Shown: positions 3,849 through 62,176, numbered from the stretch's first letter. The stretch is DNA of 64,000 bases from an uncultured Clostridia bacterium (GCA_947625805.1 CANQPT010000005.1:10181-74180), one strand, 5' to 3'. The notes: generated by a model from the letters alone, not told the origin. Made by a program: numbers and translations.

Positions 3849-3877
3849 TTGACATTTATCCCGATATATTTTATAAT
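3849..3877 (+). promoter_or_regulatory. consensus sigma-A promoter
   Basis: TTGACA (3849-3854), 17-nt spacer, TATAAT (3872-3877). Confidence 0.7.
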
Positions 3878-7786: not shown

Positions 7787-7913
7787 AAACAGCATACATA
7801 CAGGAAAAAGAAAAGGCGGTGTATCCCCTTATAGGGTGTGCACCGTCTTTCACAGTATAGGAAATCACCGATCCGGCACTCTGACACGACTTGTTCTTCC
7901 GCTTTTTTCTTGA

Positions 7914-9755
7914 TTATCCCCGGGCGACACTGCAGTAGGACAGCAACTGCTCAGGCGTAGTTTTCTCATACACAAACCGCCGATGCATACCGTAAAGGCT
8001 CTGGGGTACTCCCTTGAGCACTACGTTGGCGCCCGGTTCGGTGGTAAAGGTAACTGCAATGCCGCTTTGCGCGACCACGGTGGCGGCAAGCTCGGAATAT
8101 GCGCCCCGCGGATAGGCCAAGGCGATGGGTTCCTTTCCTGAAATGCCCGCAATCTGCTCATCTGCTGCTTTCAGATCGCTCTTTAGCAGATCGATATATG
8201 CCTGTTCGTCTTCCCCCTCGAACTGCAGCATATCAATACGCGCCCGCCCCTCCTCATAGGCCGAGCTTTGGTGCATATCATAACTATGGGTCTGGAAAGA
8301 GATCAGGCCGGAGGCAGCCATGGTTTTCATCTGCCGGTCGGTAAGGTGCGGTGTGATCGGATAATCGGTTCCCTTATAGGTCTTGTTTCCCACCTGGACG
8401 CCAATCACGAAAACGGTCGCCTGCATATGATACTTTTTCAAGACGGGAAAGGCATACGTGTAATTATCCTGATAGCCGTCGTCAAAGGTGATCAGGATCG
8501 GCTTCTCCGGCAAAGGCTCACCCGACCGGACATAGTCCTGCACCTGCTCAAGGGAAACTGCGGTATAGCCCCCTGCGGAAAGCGCGGCGATCTGTTGCTC
8601 GAACGTTTCGGGAGAAACCACCATGCCGTTTCCGTTGTCCCCCTCCGGCGAAATGCTGTGGTAAAGCAGGGTCGGCACCACAGCGCTGACGTCGGTTTCT
8701 TCCGCCGGCCCGCTTTGATAGATTGCATCGATATGTGCCTCTGCATTGCCCGGTGTGACAAGGACGCCGAAATCCTCCGGCACATAGACCGTATGATCCG
8801 AGAAGATACGCGCCAGCGCCATATCGCCCACACAATTGCGGAAATGCGTTTGGTCGTAAAAATATCGCATCTCATAACTGACCGAACTCATAGAGAAATC
8901 CCAGAAAGGGGTCACAGCGGCGATCTCGCTGTAAAAGCGCCGCACGTCCTCCCGCCGAAAGCAATGAAAATACTCGTAATAGACCGGTGCGCATACCACC
9001 ACCAAATTGACCTCATGCTGATCGCACAATGCCTTGATACGAGCAAGACTGCCCACGGTATCGTCGATATGGGTCATGACCGGATGAATGGTAGGATAAT
9101 TCCCGAAAACGGGATAGGCCTCTAAATAGGACTCGGTATCCGAGATATGCTCCACGTCCCGTGCCCGTTTGTCGTAGGTTCCGTCCTGCGGGTTGAAAGC
9201 GTCAAAACTCTGCTTGAGATATGTGTCGGAGGAGGCGCTCATCAGTTTATCGATGGCATACTTGGGCTTTGCGTACAAATAGCGCAGATAATACGAAAGA
9301 AGATTGCTCCCCTCGGTCTTTGCGTGCTGAGAATAGGTCATCTCGTCGGACTCTTGGTCATAGTGCAGGCCGTTGTCGATATAGACGTTGACCACAAGGT
9401 TTTTGCACTCGTAGTTTTCGATGATATACCGGCTCTCGCATTCCACGTCGTACATATCCGCACCGTACATGATCATGTTGAAAAAGCGGGCGTCAAAATA
9501 GCGGTTGAGCGCCTCTGTGGGATAAGAACTGGTGGAAGAACAGCCGATGATATAGGAATCATACTCATCGTGGTGAGCGTCCAACCATGCAATTTTGGAC
9601 GAGCGGGGATTTTGGGTCATGTCATAGGCATACCAGTTCATAAAACGGTCGCCGAACAAACCGAACGGATCCACCGCCCAGTTGAAAGCCCCGAGGGAAA
9701 GTATGAGCACCAGTAGGGTCAGCACAAAGCAAACCAACCATTTTTTTGCAGACAA
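7914..9755 (-). CDS. fusion protein: DltD-like SGNH-type N-terminal domain plus NodB-type polysaccharide deacetylase C-terminal domain
   Basis: TTG start 9755 after GAGG. N-terminal TM anchor. DltD-like GCSS and DQTH motifs. C-terminal NodB motifs ITFDDGYQDN and HSYDMH. Confidence 0.8.
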   Translation of the reverse strand: MSAKKWLVCFVLTLLVLILSLGAFNWAVDPFGLFGDRFMNWYAYDMTQNPRSSKIAWLDAHHDEYDSYIIGCSSTSSYPTEALNRYFDARFFNMIMYGADMYDVECESRYIIENYECKNLVVNVYIDNGLHYDQESDEMTYSQHAKTEGSNLLSYYLRYLYAKPKYAIDKLMSASSDTYLKQSFDAFNPQDGTYDKRARDVEHISDTESYLEAYPVFGNYPTIHPVMTHIDDTVGSLARIKALCDQHEVNLVVVCAPVYYEYFHCFRREDVRRFYSEIAAVTPFWDFSMSSVSYEMRYFYDQTHFRNCVGDMALARIFSDHTVYVPEDFGVLVTPGNAEAHIDAIYQSGPAEETDVSAVVPTLLYHSISPEGDNGNGMVVSPETFEQQIAALSAGGYTAVSLEQVQDYVRSGEPLPEKPILITFDDGYQDNYTYAFPVLKKYHMQATVFVIGVQVGNKTYKGTDYPITPHLTDRQMKTMAASGLISFQTHSYDMHQSSAYEEGRARIDMLQFEGEDEQAYIDLLKSDLKAADEQIAGISGKEPIALAYPRGAYSELAATVVAQSGIAVTFTTEPGANVVLKGVPQSLYGMHRRFVYEKTTPEQLLSYCSVARG

Positions 9756-9763
9756 AGTATACC

Positions 9764-11302
9764 TCAGTATTGCATATAGATAAATCCTGTGGCGATCTCA
9801 CCCTTGATCCAGAAGCCGTAAATCAGCACTACGGCGGTTAAAGCGAACATCGCAAGCCACTGCACAAAGCCGTTTTTCCCGCCCAGCGAACGACGGATCT
9901 TAACACCGCGCTCCTGAATTCCTTCCACGATCAACAGACACAATAGCGAAACACCCAGTACGATATAATCCTGCGCCGTCAGACCGAGTTTTAAGAGCGT
10001 TCCGTCGGCAAATGGCTCGAGTGCAAAGGTATTCACCGTGCGAGAGAGCATATCCAGCGCCCCCAAAAAGGTTTCCGCCCGGGTGATATACCGCCCGATC
10101 AGCACGATCAGCGCCGTACGCACCATACGGAAGGCCCGAAAGAGAGCGCATTCTCTGTCCAGATGCACTGCCTTTGCAATGCGGGCAAACACCGGCTCCA
10201 GCAACAGCGCAGCAGTAATCAACACACCGTTCCACAGGCCGAAAAAAATATATTTCGGATCAGATCCATGCCAGATCCCGATGAAAAAATAGACAATAAA
10301 AGTCACGGCCGACGTGGGCAGAATCTTACCCGCCGCTCCGTGCAAATGCTTGCGCGCAAAACGGCCCAGCGCGGAAAAGGGACGGGAGAAAGAGAGCGGA
10401 TAAAAGACGTAATCACGCATCCATCCTCCCAGGGTGATATGCCATCTTCGCCAGAAGTCGGCAATGGAGGTGGCAAACAGCGGACGGCGGAAATTCTCGG
10501 GCATCTCGATACCAAACAGTTCGGCAACTCCGCGGGCAATGTCGATGCCGCCGGAAAAGTCCCCGTACAACTGAATACAGTAAAAGATCACCGCAAAAAG
10601 AATGATTCCGCCCGAATATGCGCTGTAATCGTCGATCACGGTCCCGACCACGGCGGCCGCCCGGTCGGCGATCACCAGTTTTTTGAAAAGACCCCAAAGC
10701 ACCAGCTGTATGCCGTCCCGCAAAAAGACCGCGTCCGGCCGACGGGCGGCGGACAACTGCGGGCCGAGATCGCGGTAACGGCTGATCGGTCCCTGCACCA
10801 TCTGCGGGAAGAACGCGACAAACAGCGCATATTTGCCGAAATTGCGCTCGACCGGGTACTTGCCGCGGTATGCGTCGATCACATAGCCGCAGGACTGAAA
10901 GATATAATAAGAAATCCCCATGGGCACCACAAGGGACAAAGGGGTAAACTTCTGTCCGGTGAGTGCGCCCACCGTGACCAGCACACCGTCCAAATATTTG
11001 AGGGCAAACAGCAACCCAAAACAAGAGAGCAGAGTGAGTGCGCACATTGCTCGCTTGTGCCGCTTGAGCCTCGCCTTATCCATACTTCCTTTGCGTGCGT
11101 TCAGCGCGGACAGGCGCAGGGCCGCAAGATAGGTGATCAGCGTGATCGCAATGGGATAAAGGCCGAGAATGGGGGATGCCCACAGATAAAAGACGTAACT
11201 TGCCGCAAGCAACACAAACCACTGTGCTTTTCCGGGCACAGTGTAGTAGAGCACCAGTGTGCCCAGTACAAGCAATAAAAAAGGAAATGAAGTAAAGGAC
11301 AA
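9764..11302 (-). CDS. MBOAT family O-acyltransferase (DltB/AlgI-like)
   Basis: 512-aa polytopic protein. Conserved MBOAT region FWRRWHITLGGWMRDYVFYPL with the catalytic His. TTG start 11302 after AGAGGA. Confidence 0.9.
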   Translation of the reverse strand: MSFTSFPFLLLVLGTLVLYYTVPGKAQWFVLLAASYVFYLWASPILGLYPIAITLITYLAALRLSALNARKGSMDKARLKRHKRAMCALTLLSCFGLLFALKYLDGVLVTVGALTGQKFTPLSLVVPMGISYYIFQSCGYVIDAYRGKYPVERNFGKYALFVAFFPQMVQGPISRYRDLGPQLSAARRPDAVFLRDGIQLVLWGLFKKLVIADRAAAVVGTVIDDYSAYSGGIILFAVIFYCIQLYGDFSGGIDIARGVAELFGIEMPENFRRPLFATSIADFWRRWHITLGGWMRDYVFYPLSFSRPFSALGRFARKHLHGAAGKILPTSAVTFIVYFFIGIWHGSDPKYIFFGLWNGVLITAALLLEPVFARIAKAVHLDRECALFRAFRMVRTALIVLIGRYITRAETFLGALDMLSRTVNTFALEPFADGTLLKLGLTAQDYIVLGVSLLCLLIVEGIQERGVKIRRSLGGKNGFVQWLAMFALTAVVLIYGFWIKGEIATGFIYMQY

Positions 11303-11305
11303 AGT

Positions 11306-11530
11306 TTATCCTCTGCGCGACTCGATCAGCCTGTATATGGCCTCAGCCGAATTGAAATTTTCGGGCAAAAGATCCTCTACATCCAGCTCGATTTCGTAGT
11401 GATCCATCAGAGTCGACACGATAGCCACCAACTCAAAGGAATCAATGCGTTCCCGATCCACTAAATCGGTTTCGTTTTCAAAATCAATGCTCGGACAGAT
11501 CTCCGAGAGCAGTGCGATCAGTTCTTCCAT
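11306..11530 (-). CDS. D-alanyl-carrier-protein-like acyl carrier protein (DltC-like)
   Basis: 74 aa starting at ATG 11530 after GGAAAGGAG. Phosphopantetheine-site context RIDSFELVAIV. The upstream part of the 207-aa ORF overlaps the GNAT gene and is discarded. Confidence 0.8.
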   Translation of the reverse strand: MEELIALLSEICPSIDFENETDLVDRERIDSFELVAIVSTLMDHYEIELDVEDLLPENFNSAEAIYRLIESRRG

Positions 11531-12308
11531 TTTGACCGGCTCCTTTCCAAAACGCAAGAGAACTTGTCCCATCGGGGACAAAGCCGTATTTTTGATAAAG
11601 TCCAAGTGCTGCGGCATTGGCAGCGCCTGTAAAGACCGTGAGTTTCTTTTGCCCCTCACGGGCGAGCAGTCCCGCCAGCAGACGGCTTGCTGTACCTTGT
11701 CCGCGCACGCGCTCGTCCACGGCGAGATGGCGGATTTCGAGTGACGCTCTTCCCTGCTCGGTGTGCAGCACTCCCATGGGACTTCCGTCCGGGAAACGGA
11801 TACAGTATACCCGTCCGCCCGTGACCGCGTCGGTAAGTTCCGCCCGGGTGGGCAGACAGCCCGTATATGGGTCAAAAGAGCGTGCCAGCAGATCGCCGAT
11901 CGCAGAAATATCCGCTTGATGTGCCGCATCCGGCAGATCCGCAGGCGCGCTTTCTCCGGCTTCTCGGGTCAAACGCACGCGCGTTAGCGCCGGCTCAAAT
12001 CCGGCAGCCGCAAAAACCTCCGGCAGAGCGGGCGCGTCCTCCGGACGAAAGGCCTGTTCCGCCACAATCACGCCCTCGGGAAGGTCCGGCAGTGCACAGT
12101 CCGGCTCCAGCAAATACTGCATCCGCCAAAAGCCCTTCCGCTTGCGAAAAAGCAACAATCCCCCTGCAAAGCAGGTGGCATACAGCGTTTGATGTTCTAT
12201 TTCGGGAAGATAACGCTCTTTTTCCAGCACAAGATCGGTCAGCCTGCCGGGCTTTAGTTCCGCCATGATTTTCCCGGAAAGCCACCTGTAATCAGCAATC
12301 CGTTCCAT
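11484..12308 (-). CDS. GNAT family N-acetyltransferase domain protein inside the dlt-like operon
   Basis: C-terminal GNAT motif A (HLAVDERVRGQGTASRLL ... LYQKYGF). Start uncertain: ATG 12308 or 12332, both overlapping the end of the upstream ligase gene. The 3' end overlaps the carrier gene by 47 nt. Confidence 0.65.
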   Translation of the reverse strand: MERIADYRWLSGKIMAELKPGRLTDLVLEKERYLPEIEHQTLYATCFAGGLLLFRKRKGFWRMQYLLEPDCALPDLPEGVIVAEQAFRPEDAPALPEVFAAAGFEPALTRVRLTREAGESAPADLPDAAHQADISAIGDLLARSFDPYTGCLPTRAELTDAVTGGRVYCIRFPDGSPMGVLHTEQGRASLEIRHLAVDERVRGQGTASRLLAGLLAREGQKKLTVFTGAANAAALGLYQKYGFVPDGTSSLAFWKGAGQNGRTDRTALGDLSEH

Positions 12309-13812
12309 GCTCTGAAATCTTCCAAAGGGCATTGCGATCCAGTTTTCCGTTGGACGTGCGCGGCAGTTGCTCCATGTGACATCGCACATTCGGATTCATA
12401 TATTTGGGCAACAGCTCGGCCGCCGCCCGGGAGAGCGCGCTCTCCTCAGCCTGTCCGCTGTAACAAGCGATGATGCGATCTTTTTCCCGATCAAAGATAC
12501 AGGCGATCTGATCCACGCCGGGTACGGCCGACAGCACGGTTTCGATCTCGGCAAGCTCGATGCGGTATCCCATATGCTTGACCTGATTGTCCTTGCGTGC
12601 ACAAAAACAAATCTCGCCCCGCTCGTTTATTTTGCCCAGATCTCCGGTGCGATAGATCAGGTCACGATAAGCGGTGTTGGCGGGATTCTGCACGAAAGCG
12701 GCGTCGGTCTTTTCCCGATCGCCGAAATATCCAAGCGCAAGACCGATTCCCCGCACGCAGATCTCGCCGATGCTTCCTTGGGGTACGCTTTGCAGATCTT
12801 CGTTTAGCAGCAGCACCTGCTTGTTCTCGCAAACCTTTCCGATGGGAATGCTCTCGCAGTCGGCAAACTCCCGCTCGATTTTATAATAGGTACAGTCCAC
12901 CGTTACCTCTGTGGGGCCGTAAAGATTGACGTATTCCACCTGCGGAAGCGCCCGCCTCCAGCGGTTTAACTGCTTTGCCTGCAATGCTTCCCCGCCCAGA
13001 ATGACCTTACCAAGCGAGGCGGGCGCGACACGCTCTAAAGCCCCGGAATTGGCCACCAGATGAAAAGCCGAGGTCGCCCATATGAAAGCGGTAATCCCCT
13101 CTTTCTCGGCAAACTCCAAAAGCAATTTGGGAAAGAGGAAAAAACGATGGGGAAAGATATGACAGGTGGCGGCATGCTTGACCGTCTGATAGATATCCTT
13201 GACCGAAAGGTCGAAATAAAAGGGCGCCTGATTTCCGAAAATATCATCCCCGCCAAAGCCAAAGGTTTCGCTCATCCATTCGGTAAAATCAATAACCGAG
13301 CGATGGCAGACAACAATGCCCTTGGGCACACCGGTAGAGCCGGAGGTAAAAATGATGTAAGCGGGATCTATATCCAGTACCTGTGCGCGCTGCGCACACA
13401 GCGCCGCGCTGTCGGTCGTATGTTCCACCGCTTGGGAAAAAAGCACGGTCGGGCAAAGAGCGGTCGTATCGGGCAAATCGGTCCCATCCGGGGTGATCAG
13501 ACAGAGCGGACGCACCTGCGCAAGAATATGCTCCATACGCCGGACGGGCATATGCGGATCAATGGGTAGATAGTAATTGCCCGAAGCCAGCACGCCGAAA
13601 AAGGCCGCAAGTGTATCCGCGCTGCGCTCGACCGCCACCGCGATCGGTCGGTTTAAGGCGCCAAAGCGCTCAAACAAATAACTGCCGATGGCCTCCGCCC
13701 GGTCGTACAACTGCGCGTAAGTGTATCCGGTCCGCTCGTCTGCAAAAGCGAGTTTGTCCGGAGCAGTCCGCACCGCGTCAGATAAATAGTCATAGAGGTT
13801 TTTCTGATACAT
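12292..13812 (-). CDS. amino acid adenylation enzyme, D-alanine--carrier protein ligase-like (DltA-like)
   Basis: 506 aa. AMP-binding core motifs IFTSGSTGVPKG, YGPTE, YRTGDL and the C-terminal NGKLDR. Confidence 0.88.
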   Translation of the reverse strand: MYQKNLYDYLSDAVRTAPDKLAFADERTGYTYAQLYDRAEAIGSYLFERFGALNRPIAVAVERSADTLAAFFGVLASGNYYLPIDPHMPVRRMEHILAQVRPLCLITPDGTDLPDTTALCPTVLFSQAVEHTTDSAALCAQRAQVLDIDPAYIIFTSGSTGVPKGIVVCHRSVIDFTEWMSETFGFGGDDIFGNQAPFYFDLSVKDIYQTVKHAATCHIFPHRFFLFPKLLLEFAEKEGITAFIWATSAFHLVANSGALERVAPASLGKVILGGEALQAKQLNRWRRALPQVEYVNLYGPTEVTVDCTYYKIEREFADCESIPIGKVCENKQVLLLNEDLQSVPQGSIGEICVRGIGLALGYFGDREKTDAAFVQNPANTAYRDLIYRTGDLGKINERGEICFCARKDNQVKHMGYRIELAEIETVLSAVPGVDQIACIFDREKDRIIACYSGQAEESALSRAAAELLPKYMNPNVRCHMEQLPRTSNGKLDRNALWKISEHGTDC

Positions 13813-13838
13813 TCCGCTTTCCCATCTTATCTAAGGAA

Positions 13839-13867
13839 ATTATAGCCCATTGCCCACCATTTGTCAA
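13839..13867 (-). promoter_or_regulatory. consensus sigma-A promoter of the dlt-like operon
   Basis: On the minus strand: TTGACA (13867-13862), 17-nt spacer, TATAAT (13844-13839). Lies about 25 nt upstream of ATG 13812. Confidence 0.7.
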
Positions 13868-18598: not shown

Positions 18599-18627
18599 TT
18601 GACAAACTCTGATGCGTTTGGTATAAT
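18599..18627 (+). promoter_or_regulatory. perfect consensus sigma-A promoter for tRNA-Gln
   Basis: TTGACA (18599-18604), 17-nt spacer, TATAAT (18622-18627). Lies 20 nt upstream of the tRNA 5' end. Confidence 0.8.
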
Positions 18628-62147: not shown

Positions 62148-62176
62148 TTGACAAAAACACGGCTTTTATATATAAT
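62148..62176 (+). promoter_or_regulatory. perfect consensus sigma-A promoter (P1) upstream of the acyl-CoA ligase gene
   Basis: TTGACA (62148-62153), 17-nt spacer, TATAAT (62171-62176). A second weaker promoter follows: TTGATT 62212-62217, 17-nt spacer, TATAAT 62235-62240. Confidence 0.65.

Follow-up and report, generated by a model that had tools for sequence, protein, structure and literature searches.

What would an operon built like dlt modify if it also encoded an acetyltransferase, and if its terminal transferase were fused to a polysaccharide deacetylase? This question is raised by a DNA stretch of 64,000 nucleotides (nt) from an uncultured Clostridia bacterium (GCA_947625805.1 CANQPT010000005.1:10181-74180), hereafter the window, whose first letter is position 1. 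A first-pass annotation had described positions 7914-13867 as a non-canonical dlt-like operon, in which one perfect promoter precedes five closely packed, co-directional genes for a DltA-like adenylating enzyme, a GNAT-domain protein, a 74-amino acid (aa) DltC-like carrier, a DltB-like MBOAT and a protein linking a transferase to a deacetylase. We compared these proteins with family models of Pfam and NCBIfam, each applied with its own score cut-off, and with orthologs and solved structures. The layout and the gene identities held: each of the five genes is on the minus strand, where it had been placed, and the non-canonical character was borne out in that the scores for the DltA, DltB and DltC equivalogs were below cut-off and the DltD family PF04914 was unmatched. 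The features are as follows.

13867-13839, minus strand: sigma-70-type promoter, TTGACA-17-TATAAT, matching the consensus at 12 of 12 positions
13812-12292, minus strand: adenylase gene, 506 aa, first gene of the operon
12308-11484, minus strand: GNAT gene, 274 aa, with the start at 12308 backed by orthologs
11530-11306, minus strand: carrier gene, 74 aa
11302-9764, minus strand: MBOAT gene, 512 aa, TTG start
9755-7914, minus strand: fusion gene, 613 aa, TTG start
8691..9755, minus strand: SGNH half of the fusion protein (residues 1-355), with a transmembrane anchor at ~3-28, a juxtamembrane N25..DPFGxF and an SGNH-fold transferase domain
7914..8690, minus strand: CE4 half (fusion protein residues 356-613), a CE4 (NodB) de-N-acetylase of the PgaB/IcaB type

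We propose, with a probability of roughly 0.6, that this cassette serves to aminoacylate a cell-envelope glycan through a carrier-protein-dependent MBOAT-SGNH route and is a hybrid of the Dlt and PatA-PatB systems. A literature search found no description of an architecture that brings together dlt-like genes, an MBOAT, a carrier protein and a polysaccharide deacetylase.

The cassette is not a peculiarity of one assembly. We detected more than 2000 full-length homologues of the fusion protein (~610 aa, 49-64% identity). In a species-level survey, with one genome per species scanned, relatives of the fusion protein were present in 190 genomes, almost all of them gut or rumen Clostridia and mainly Oscillospiraceae. 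Eighty loci were fetched for comparison of gene order. The order adenylase-GNAT-carrier-MBOAT-fusion was found in about 70 of them and was kept wherever the contig was long enough, with three exceptions: two loci (L012 and L020) had no GNAT gene and one (L053) had none of the upstream genes. Given so many full-length homologues, and a five-gene order that recurs from genome to genome, the fusion and the GNAT gene are not assembly artefacts, a possibility that the first-pass annotation had raised.

Amino-acid donor and acyl shuttle

The adenylase matched AMP-binding (E-value 5e-69) and AMP-binding_C in Pfam, and its score of 362 bits on the amino-acid adenylation domain model TIGR01733 was above the cut-off of 317.4. 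DltA was its best-scoring named equivalog, yet the score of 288.1 bits was below the cut-offs of 476 and 559.85 (TIGR01734); true DltA proteins of other genomes scored 565-711 bits on TIGR01734. Among solved structures, adenylation (A) domains of non-ribosomal peptide synthetases (NRPS) and DltA scored alike, and the best single PDB match was 8XJZ.

We further examined the specificity pocket of the enzyme. The ten Stachelhaus positions were located from the conserved A4, A5 and A10 motifs in an alignment of 68 cassette adenylases (that of the window and 67 orthologs) and seven matches to the DltA model, four of which were above the TIGR01734 cut-off. The window adenylase has the code DLKIIGLVDK, and the consensus of the 68 sequences is D-x-K-x-x-G-[LM]-V-D-K, with D235 and D331 present in all 68, K239 in 67 and G301 in 65; Lys517, like D235, is invariant. 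The DltA sequences above the TIGR01734 cut-off have the code DL[ML][TV]LC[TL]VAK. The two groups thus differ at position 239 (Lys versus Met/Leu), position 301 (Gly versus Cys, the latter in five of six DltA sequences) and position 331 (Asp versus Ala), with 65-68 of the 68 cassette adenylases having the residue given first. The adenylases of cassettes that lack the GNAT gene have a code of the same type. The earlier caution that D-Ala specificity could not be assumed was therefore justified, since the pocket is not that of DltA.

Position 1 of surfactin is Glu. The code of the Glu-activating surfactin A1 domain, DAKDLGVV (PMC10548584), and the cassette code have K239, G301 and V330 in common. 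Retention of Asp235 suggests that the substrate should be an alpha-amino acid, and on the basis of the near-invariant Lys239 in the pocket we propose an acidic, Glu-like cargo. Judged by its pocket residues, the enzyme most likely activates an amino acid other than D-alanine; that the cargo is acidic and Glu-like is our leading guess, held with modest confidence.

A second DltA-like adenylase (470 aa, G000:C6:49348-50745, corresponding to L085:7343-8755 on the plus strand) is encoded in the same genome. On the DltA model its score was 412 bits, and with DLAVYCASAK it has a code nearer to the D-Ala type. In its neighbourhood (L085:6475-10517) it is preceded by a VanW-domain gene and followed by an 88-aa open reading frame (ORF) and then by genes for an unknown protein of 239 aa and one that is PqqD-like. 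The 88-aa ORF, which had no Pfam match, is possibly a carrier. DltB and DltD were not found in this genome.

The 74-aa carrier scored 23.8 bits on PP-binding (cut-off 20.8) and 19.8 bits on the DltC equivalog NF003464, below the cut-off of 68. Ser31, the phosphopantetheine attachment site in the motif IDSFE, is invariant in 29 orthologs. That the operon has an adenylase and a carrier of its own implies an aminoacyl-carrier donor.

The fourth gene encodes an MBOAT protein, with 67.1 bits on PF03062 (cut-off 27) and 153.7 bits on the DltB equivalog TIGR04091 (below the cut-off of 375), and is the only MBOAT gene found in the genome. DltB was the only solved structure matched by its sequence, and WH288 and GIWH345G align to the His motifs of DltB. 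Both W287-H288 and W344-H345-G346 are near-invariant among the orthologs, and H345 in the WHG motif is the predicted catalytic His. The protein has 512 aa, about 120 more than the canonical DltB proteins that we fetched (384-393 aa), and ends in FIYMQY, a hexapeptide that includes Tyr509. In an alignment of the window protein and 73 orthologs, F507, I508 and Y509 are near-invariant, and FIYxQ[FY] is located at the extreme C-terminus in 71 of the 74 sequences. Separate small ORFs ending in FIYNEF or FIYNNF are present in two of the three complete canonical dlt loci, and no DltX-like ORF was detected in the cassette operon.

An FxYxxF acyl-shuttle motif is carried by the DltX microprotein in Dlt and by the MBOAT's C-terminal end in the acetyl-CoA-dependent PatA/AlgI-type systems, which have no carrier protein (PMC12148441). 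By its sequence, the cassette MBOAT is of the PatA/AlgI type, with a shuttle motif fused at the C-terminus that takes the place of a DltX gene. With an adenylase and a carrier in the same operon, a Dlt-type donor is joined to a PatA-type built-in shuttle. The known MBOAT-SGNH systems are divided in this respect, Dlt using a carrier and the DltX microprotein and all other pairs using acyl-CoA and a shuttle motif on the MBOAT (PMC12148441). The cassette crosses this divide, as it has both the carrier donor and the fused shuttle, along with a deacetylase and an acetyltransferase.

A different arrangement was observed in another Bacillota genome (L100; G137:C49:17300-24400), where a canonical dlt locus contains two small DltX-like ORFs, ending in FIYNNF and YIYNAF. 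Two additional genes, of 224 and 437 aa, separate dltB from the second dltX and dltD there.

The fusion protein and the tandem GNAT

The N-terminal half of the fusion protein had no Pfam match. It contains the catalytic motifs GCSS (Ser73) and D301-x-x-H304, which are invariant or nearly so in 20 homologues; Gly98 is invariant and Asn128 is conserved in at least 90% of the fusion family, so that blocks I (Ser), II (Gly), III (Asn) and V (Asp-x-x-His) of the SGNH hydrolase fold (clan CL0264) are all present. A model built from an alignment of fused and stand-alone relatives had a predicted local distance difference test score (pLDDT) of 95.5. The top 12 Foldseek matches of this model were all DltD (E-values 5e-5 to 4e-3). 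With VIA-align, many SGNH hydrolases reached Z scores of 11-13 (155-180 residues), and DltD reached ~11 (240-253 residues). The DltD model PF04914 (cut-off 22.7 bits) had no match to the fusion protein at an E-value of 0.01 or lower, and none in the genome. When an alignment of the SGNH half was compared with an alignment of DltD by hhalign, the probability was 6%; we therefore dropped membership in the DltD family and retained the likeness of fold. The first-pass annotation had called this half DltD-like on account of its GCSS and DxxH motifs: the motifs and the likeness of fold stand, but membership in the DltD sequence family does not, and the modelled domain is DltD-like at the fold level only.

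Relatives of the SGNH half were then sought in the whole library, and 1282 were detected, including stand-alone forms of ~350 aa. One of these (P0269; ~25% identity to the window protein) is encoded next to an MBOAT gene and scored above the cut-off for DUF1574 (PF07611), an SGNH-clan family of no known function (PMC9487903); the window protein itself does not match this family. Another relative scored 18 bits on the DltD model, just under the cut-off of 22.7. Of five stand-alone relatives whose neighbours were looked up, four are encoded directly 3' of an MBOAT gene, and the contig of the fifth was too short. One stand-alone relative (L098:940-10782) follows a 409-aa MBOAT inside a sialic-acid-type locus with NeuB, an epimerase and a CMP-transferase. 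Still further downstream, a flippase is encoded, as is a separate CE4 deacetylase; the locus has no adenylase or carrier.

The C-terminal half is a CE4 domain. Residues 414-567 scored 77.1 bits on Polysacc_deac_1 (PF01522, cut-off 23.1), and the half scored 125.8 bits on the PgaB model TIGR03938 (profile positions 6-255; below the cut-off of 321.9) and 78.9 bits on the IcaB model TIGR03933 (below the cut-off of 248.4). Tyr365-His366, Asp425-Asp426, His490 and His495 are invariant. Of the two NodB motifs reported earlier, TFDDG was located at residues 423-427, but HSxxH was a misreading: the histidine motif is H490-S-Y-D-M-H495, with the H-x4-H spacing of the PgaB type. The nearest solved chains were BpsB/PgaB, 6dq3, the Bacillus BC0361-type proteins (6go1/4hd5) and IcaB (4wcj). 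The Asp-His-His metal triad, the H-x4-H spacing and the upstream Tyr-His are shared with PgaB/IcaB/BpsB (5bu6, 4f9d, 4wcj, 6dq3). Unlike PgaB, the cassette protein has no PgaB C-terminal domain, and its CE4 domain is fused behind an SGNH transferase. Poly-N-acetylglucosamine (PNAG) was considered as the target polymer. It is not evident as such, since no PgaC/IcaA synthase was over cut-off in the 93%-complete genome (best score 62.5 bits versus 422).

One locus (L095) has a split form of the cassette, in which the adenylase, carrier, MBOAT (ending in FVYQKY), SGNH and CE4 proteins are all encoded by separate genes, the last two adjacent to each other, and in which there is no GNAT gene. This shows that the deacetylase is part of the system whether fused or not, and that the GNAT is accessory. 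It also strengthens the link between transferase and deacetylase that the fusion had first suggested.

The second gene, reported earlier as encoding a GNAT-domain protein, could be refined to a tandem GNAT on the basis of fold. Pfam matches above cut-off (PF13508, PF00583 and PF13673) covered only residues 165-247. The model (pLDDT 91.7) has the two-lobed fold of tandem GNATs, and its best Foldseek matches were the tandem GNATs 3tt2, VipF, MshD and MAB_4324 (E-values 5e-11 to 4e-9); WecD and a clostridial glucosamine N-acetyltransferase were also matched. Most of these fold matches acetylate primary amines. In the orthologs the N-terminal lobe is conserved, Cys151 in TGCLP is invariant, and the C-terminal GNAT contains an R/QxxGxG/A acetyl-CoA motif. 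A profile search for the GNAT family beyond the cassette, limited by shared words, found only 31 proteins, all strongly scoring and of ~224-352 aa. The GNAT protein lacks any membrane or signal segment, and its gene is located between those of the adenylase and the carrier, which makes N-acetylation of the carrier-bound amino acid the most economical reading and, judging also from the modelled fold, the most likely one. In the window, the GNAT has a C-terminal tail of ~20 aa (region 11484-11560, minus strand) that reaches 47 nt into the carrier gene. This tail is missing from most orthologs, and pLDDT is 46-52 over the last 20 residues.

Proposed pathway and alternatives

In our best reading, the cytoplasmic half of the cassette would work like Dlt and the membrane half like PatA/PatB, with the SGNH transferase physically coupled to a de-N-acetylase. 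In the pathway that we infer, including its cargo, GNAT substrate, acceptor polymer, linkage and order of reactions, the adenylase would activate a free alpha-amino acid other than D-Ala, probably Glu-like, and load it as a thioester onto the Ser31-phosphopantetheine of the carrier. The tandem GNAT, cytoplasmic and accessory, would most likely N-acetylate the amino acid on the carrier at its amino group. His345 of the MBOAT would then move the acyl group from the carrier to the protein's own Tyr509 in FIYxQ[FY] on the outer side of the membrane, so that DltX would not be needed. Ser73 of the SGNH half would receive the acyl group and pass it to a wall or surface glycan, presumably a wall glycan containing N-acetylglucosamine (GlcNAc). 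Finally, the fused CE4 domain may de-N-acetylate GlcNAc in the same polymer, either readying the acceptor or co-tuning the surface charge.

This pathway resembles several characterized systems in part. The Dlt pathway (DltA, DltC, DltB, DltX, DltD) D-alanylates teichoic acids. Like the cassette, it has a stand-alone adenylase that loads a small carrier, an MBOAT for transfer across the membrane and a membrane-anchored SGNH protein for the final transfer; unlike the cassette, it has a D-Ala pocket, a DltX gene and a DltB that is shorter than the 512-aa cassette MBOAT. The tandem GNAT and the CE4 domain go beyond Dlt. In Vibrio cholerae, AlmE/AlmF/AlmG modify lipid A with glycine. There too, a DltA-like adenylase and a DltC-like carrier supply an amino acid other than D-Ala for the envelope, but the Alm transferase is of the lysophospholipid-acyltransferase type and acts on lipid A, and the system is not known to include an MBOAT, SGNH, CE4 or GNAT. 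PatA/PatB, AlgI/AlgJ/AlgX and WssH/WssI are acetyl-CoA-dependent MBOAT-SGNH O-acetyltransferase pairs (PMC12148441). The PatA/PatB type has, like the cassette, an MBOAT whose C-terminal extension ends in a shuttle hexapeptide with an invariant Tyr, and an SGNH partner with a Ser/His/Asp triad. It uses acyl-CoA without a carrier, whereas the cassette encodes an adenylase and a carrier and has its SGNH domain fused to a deacetylase.

Several observations weigh against the pathway as drawn. Among the flanks of the 80 loci, no conserved neighbour hints at the target polymer. The Glu-like assignment draws on one pocket residue and the likeness to one code, and position 278 differs between the two. 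The nearest characterized relatives of the CE4 domain act on PNAG, a polymer that the bacterium may not make. Known SGNH transferases of this kind make O-esters, and what suggests a link to de-N-acetylation is fusion and adjacency alone. The GNAT is missing from three otherwise complete cassettes (L012, L020 and L095), hence its step is not essential. The low hhalign probability for the SGNH half and DltD also counts here.

Could the cassette be no more than a divergent dltABCD operon serving the D-alanylation of teichoic acids, with the GNAT and the deacetylase as unrelated passengers? The order adenylase-carrier-MBOAT-SGNH mimics dlt, the best-scoring named NCBIfam equivalogs for three genes are DltA, DltB and DltC, DltD heads the fold matches of the SGNH half, and no canonical DltD was detected elsewhere in the genome. 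We nevertheless consider this very unlikely, because every Dlt equivalog score is far under its cut-off, pocket positions 239, 301 and 331 are unlike DltA among the 68 cassette adenylases, the shuttle motif is on the MBOAT and not on a DltX, and conservation of the cassette across genomes extends to the GNAT and the CE4 domain. Even less credible is a role in making a small secreted or membrane-bound metabolite of the N-acyl amino-acid type by an NRPS-like stand-alone system of adenylation and carrier proteins. The equal scores of the adenylase on NRPS A-domains and DltA would fit such a role, but no condensation, thioesterase or reductase domain is present, and the partners are a shuttle-motif MBOAT, an extracytoplasmic SGNH protein and a polysaccharide deacetylase. 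A different function for the GNAT itself should also be considered, namely that of a carrier-dependent acyltransferase that moves the aminoacyl group to a cytoplasmic amine, for example an amino sugar linked to a nucleotide or a lipid, so that the cassette would feed two routes. Carrier-dependent GNATs occur in altemicidin biosynthesis, pantetheine, a group displayed by acyl-carrier proteins as well, is bound by the GNAT fold, and the gene is wedged between those of the adenylase and the carrier and overlaps both; moreover, with Cys151 and a conserved N-terminal lobe the protein looks like more than a plain acetyltransferase. We regard this as unlikely, given that the canonical acetyl-CoA motif is present, the closest folds are amine N-acetyltransferases that use acetyl-CoA, no cytoplasmic sugar-nucleotide genes are located beside the cassette, and the MBOAT and SGNH proteins already provide a full exit route.

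The alternative that we take most seriously, at somewhat less than even odds, concerns the two halves of the fusion protein. The SGNH domain may form O-esters and the CE4 domain may de-N-acetylate the same polymer independently, both tuning charge and resistance to lysozyme or antimicrobial peptides, with the freed amine not serving as an acceptor. De-N-acetylation and aminoacylation are both known to tune charge, and SGNH and CE4 proteins occur as separate genes too. In addition, the known MBOAT-SGNH pairs yield O-esters (PMC12148441). On the other hand, the fusion persists in the more than 2000 homologues and the genes are adjacent when split, which suggests a link tighter than shared regulation. 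One form of such a link would be an extracytoplasmic N-acyl swap on a wall glycan already completed, in which the CE4 domain strips the N-acetyl group from GlcNAc and the SGNH acyl-enzyme then amide-links a Glu-like, possibly N-acetylated, amino acid to the freed amine of glucosamine. We consider this version doubtful. If true, it would make the cassette the first MBOAT-SGNH system with an N-acyl rather than an O-acyl product and the first carrier-fed MBOAT to have its own tyrosine shuttle, and Dlt and PatAB/AlgIJ might be bridged by it in evolution.

The aminoacylation system that we favour would provide an SGNH family that has no name, a relation of DUF1574, with a function. If the cargo is acidic or capped, the effect on surface charge would differ from that of D-alanylation, which would bear on how abundant gut commensals meet host antimicrobial peptides, lysozyme and phages. 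The cassette is directly testable, as it is carried by two cultured organisms, Evtepia gabavorous KLE1738 (L019) and Agathobaculum butyriciproducens DSM 100391 (L061).

Distribution and genomic surroundings

Carriers known from metagenome-assembled genomes (MAGs) include Flavonifractor, Faecousia, Acutalibacter and Neglectibacter. The distribution is patchy: 12 of 251 sampled genomes of the same order, this one included, had the cassette, and none of 13 others of the same family did. Three cassette-bearing contigs (L013, L028 and L045) are labelled as Deltaproteobacteria, Succinivibrio and Bulleidia MAGs, respectively. These odd labels could be binning or labelling errors, or could reflect transfer beyond Oscillospiraceae. 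Recent horizontal transfer into the present genome was considered on the basis of composition and rejected, as there is no GC signal (operon 0.542, window 0.532).

The flanks of the cassette are not conserved, the commonest flank family being present in seven of the 80 loci. In the window, the neighbours are unrelated to the cassette: an aminotransferase gene and a DUF3737 gene are located upstream and a MatE gene downstream. One further feature was noted in the gap that separates the fusion gene from the convergent MatE gene.

7804..7847 (approximate), minus strand: terminator-like hairpin and U-run (UUUUCUUUUU)

Its assignment is based on its shape in a fold of 7787-7925 (minus strand), and the energy z-score of the segment was not significant. 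Within the operon, the GNAT gene overlaps its neighbours at both ends, sharing 17 nt with the adenylase gene and 47 nt with the carrier gene. The promoter is located ~27 nt 5' of the adenylase start codon. Perfect TTGACA-17-TATAAT sites occur four times in the window, compared to none in 100 shuffles; the other three are at 3849-3877, 18599-18627 and 62148-62176, all on the plus strand.

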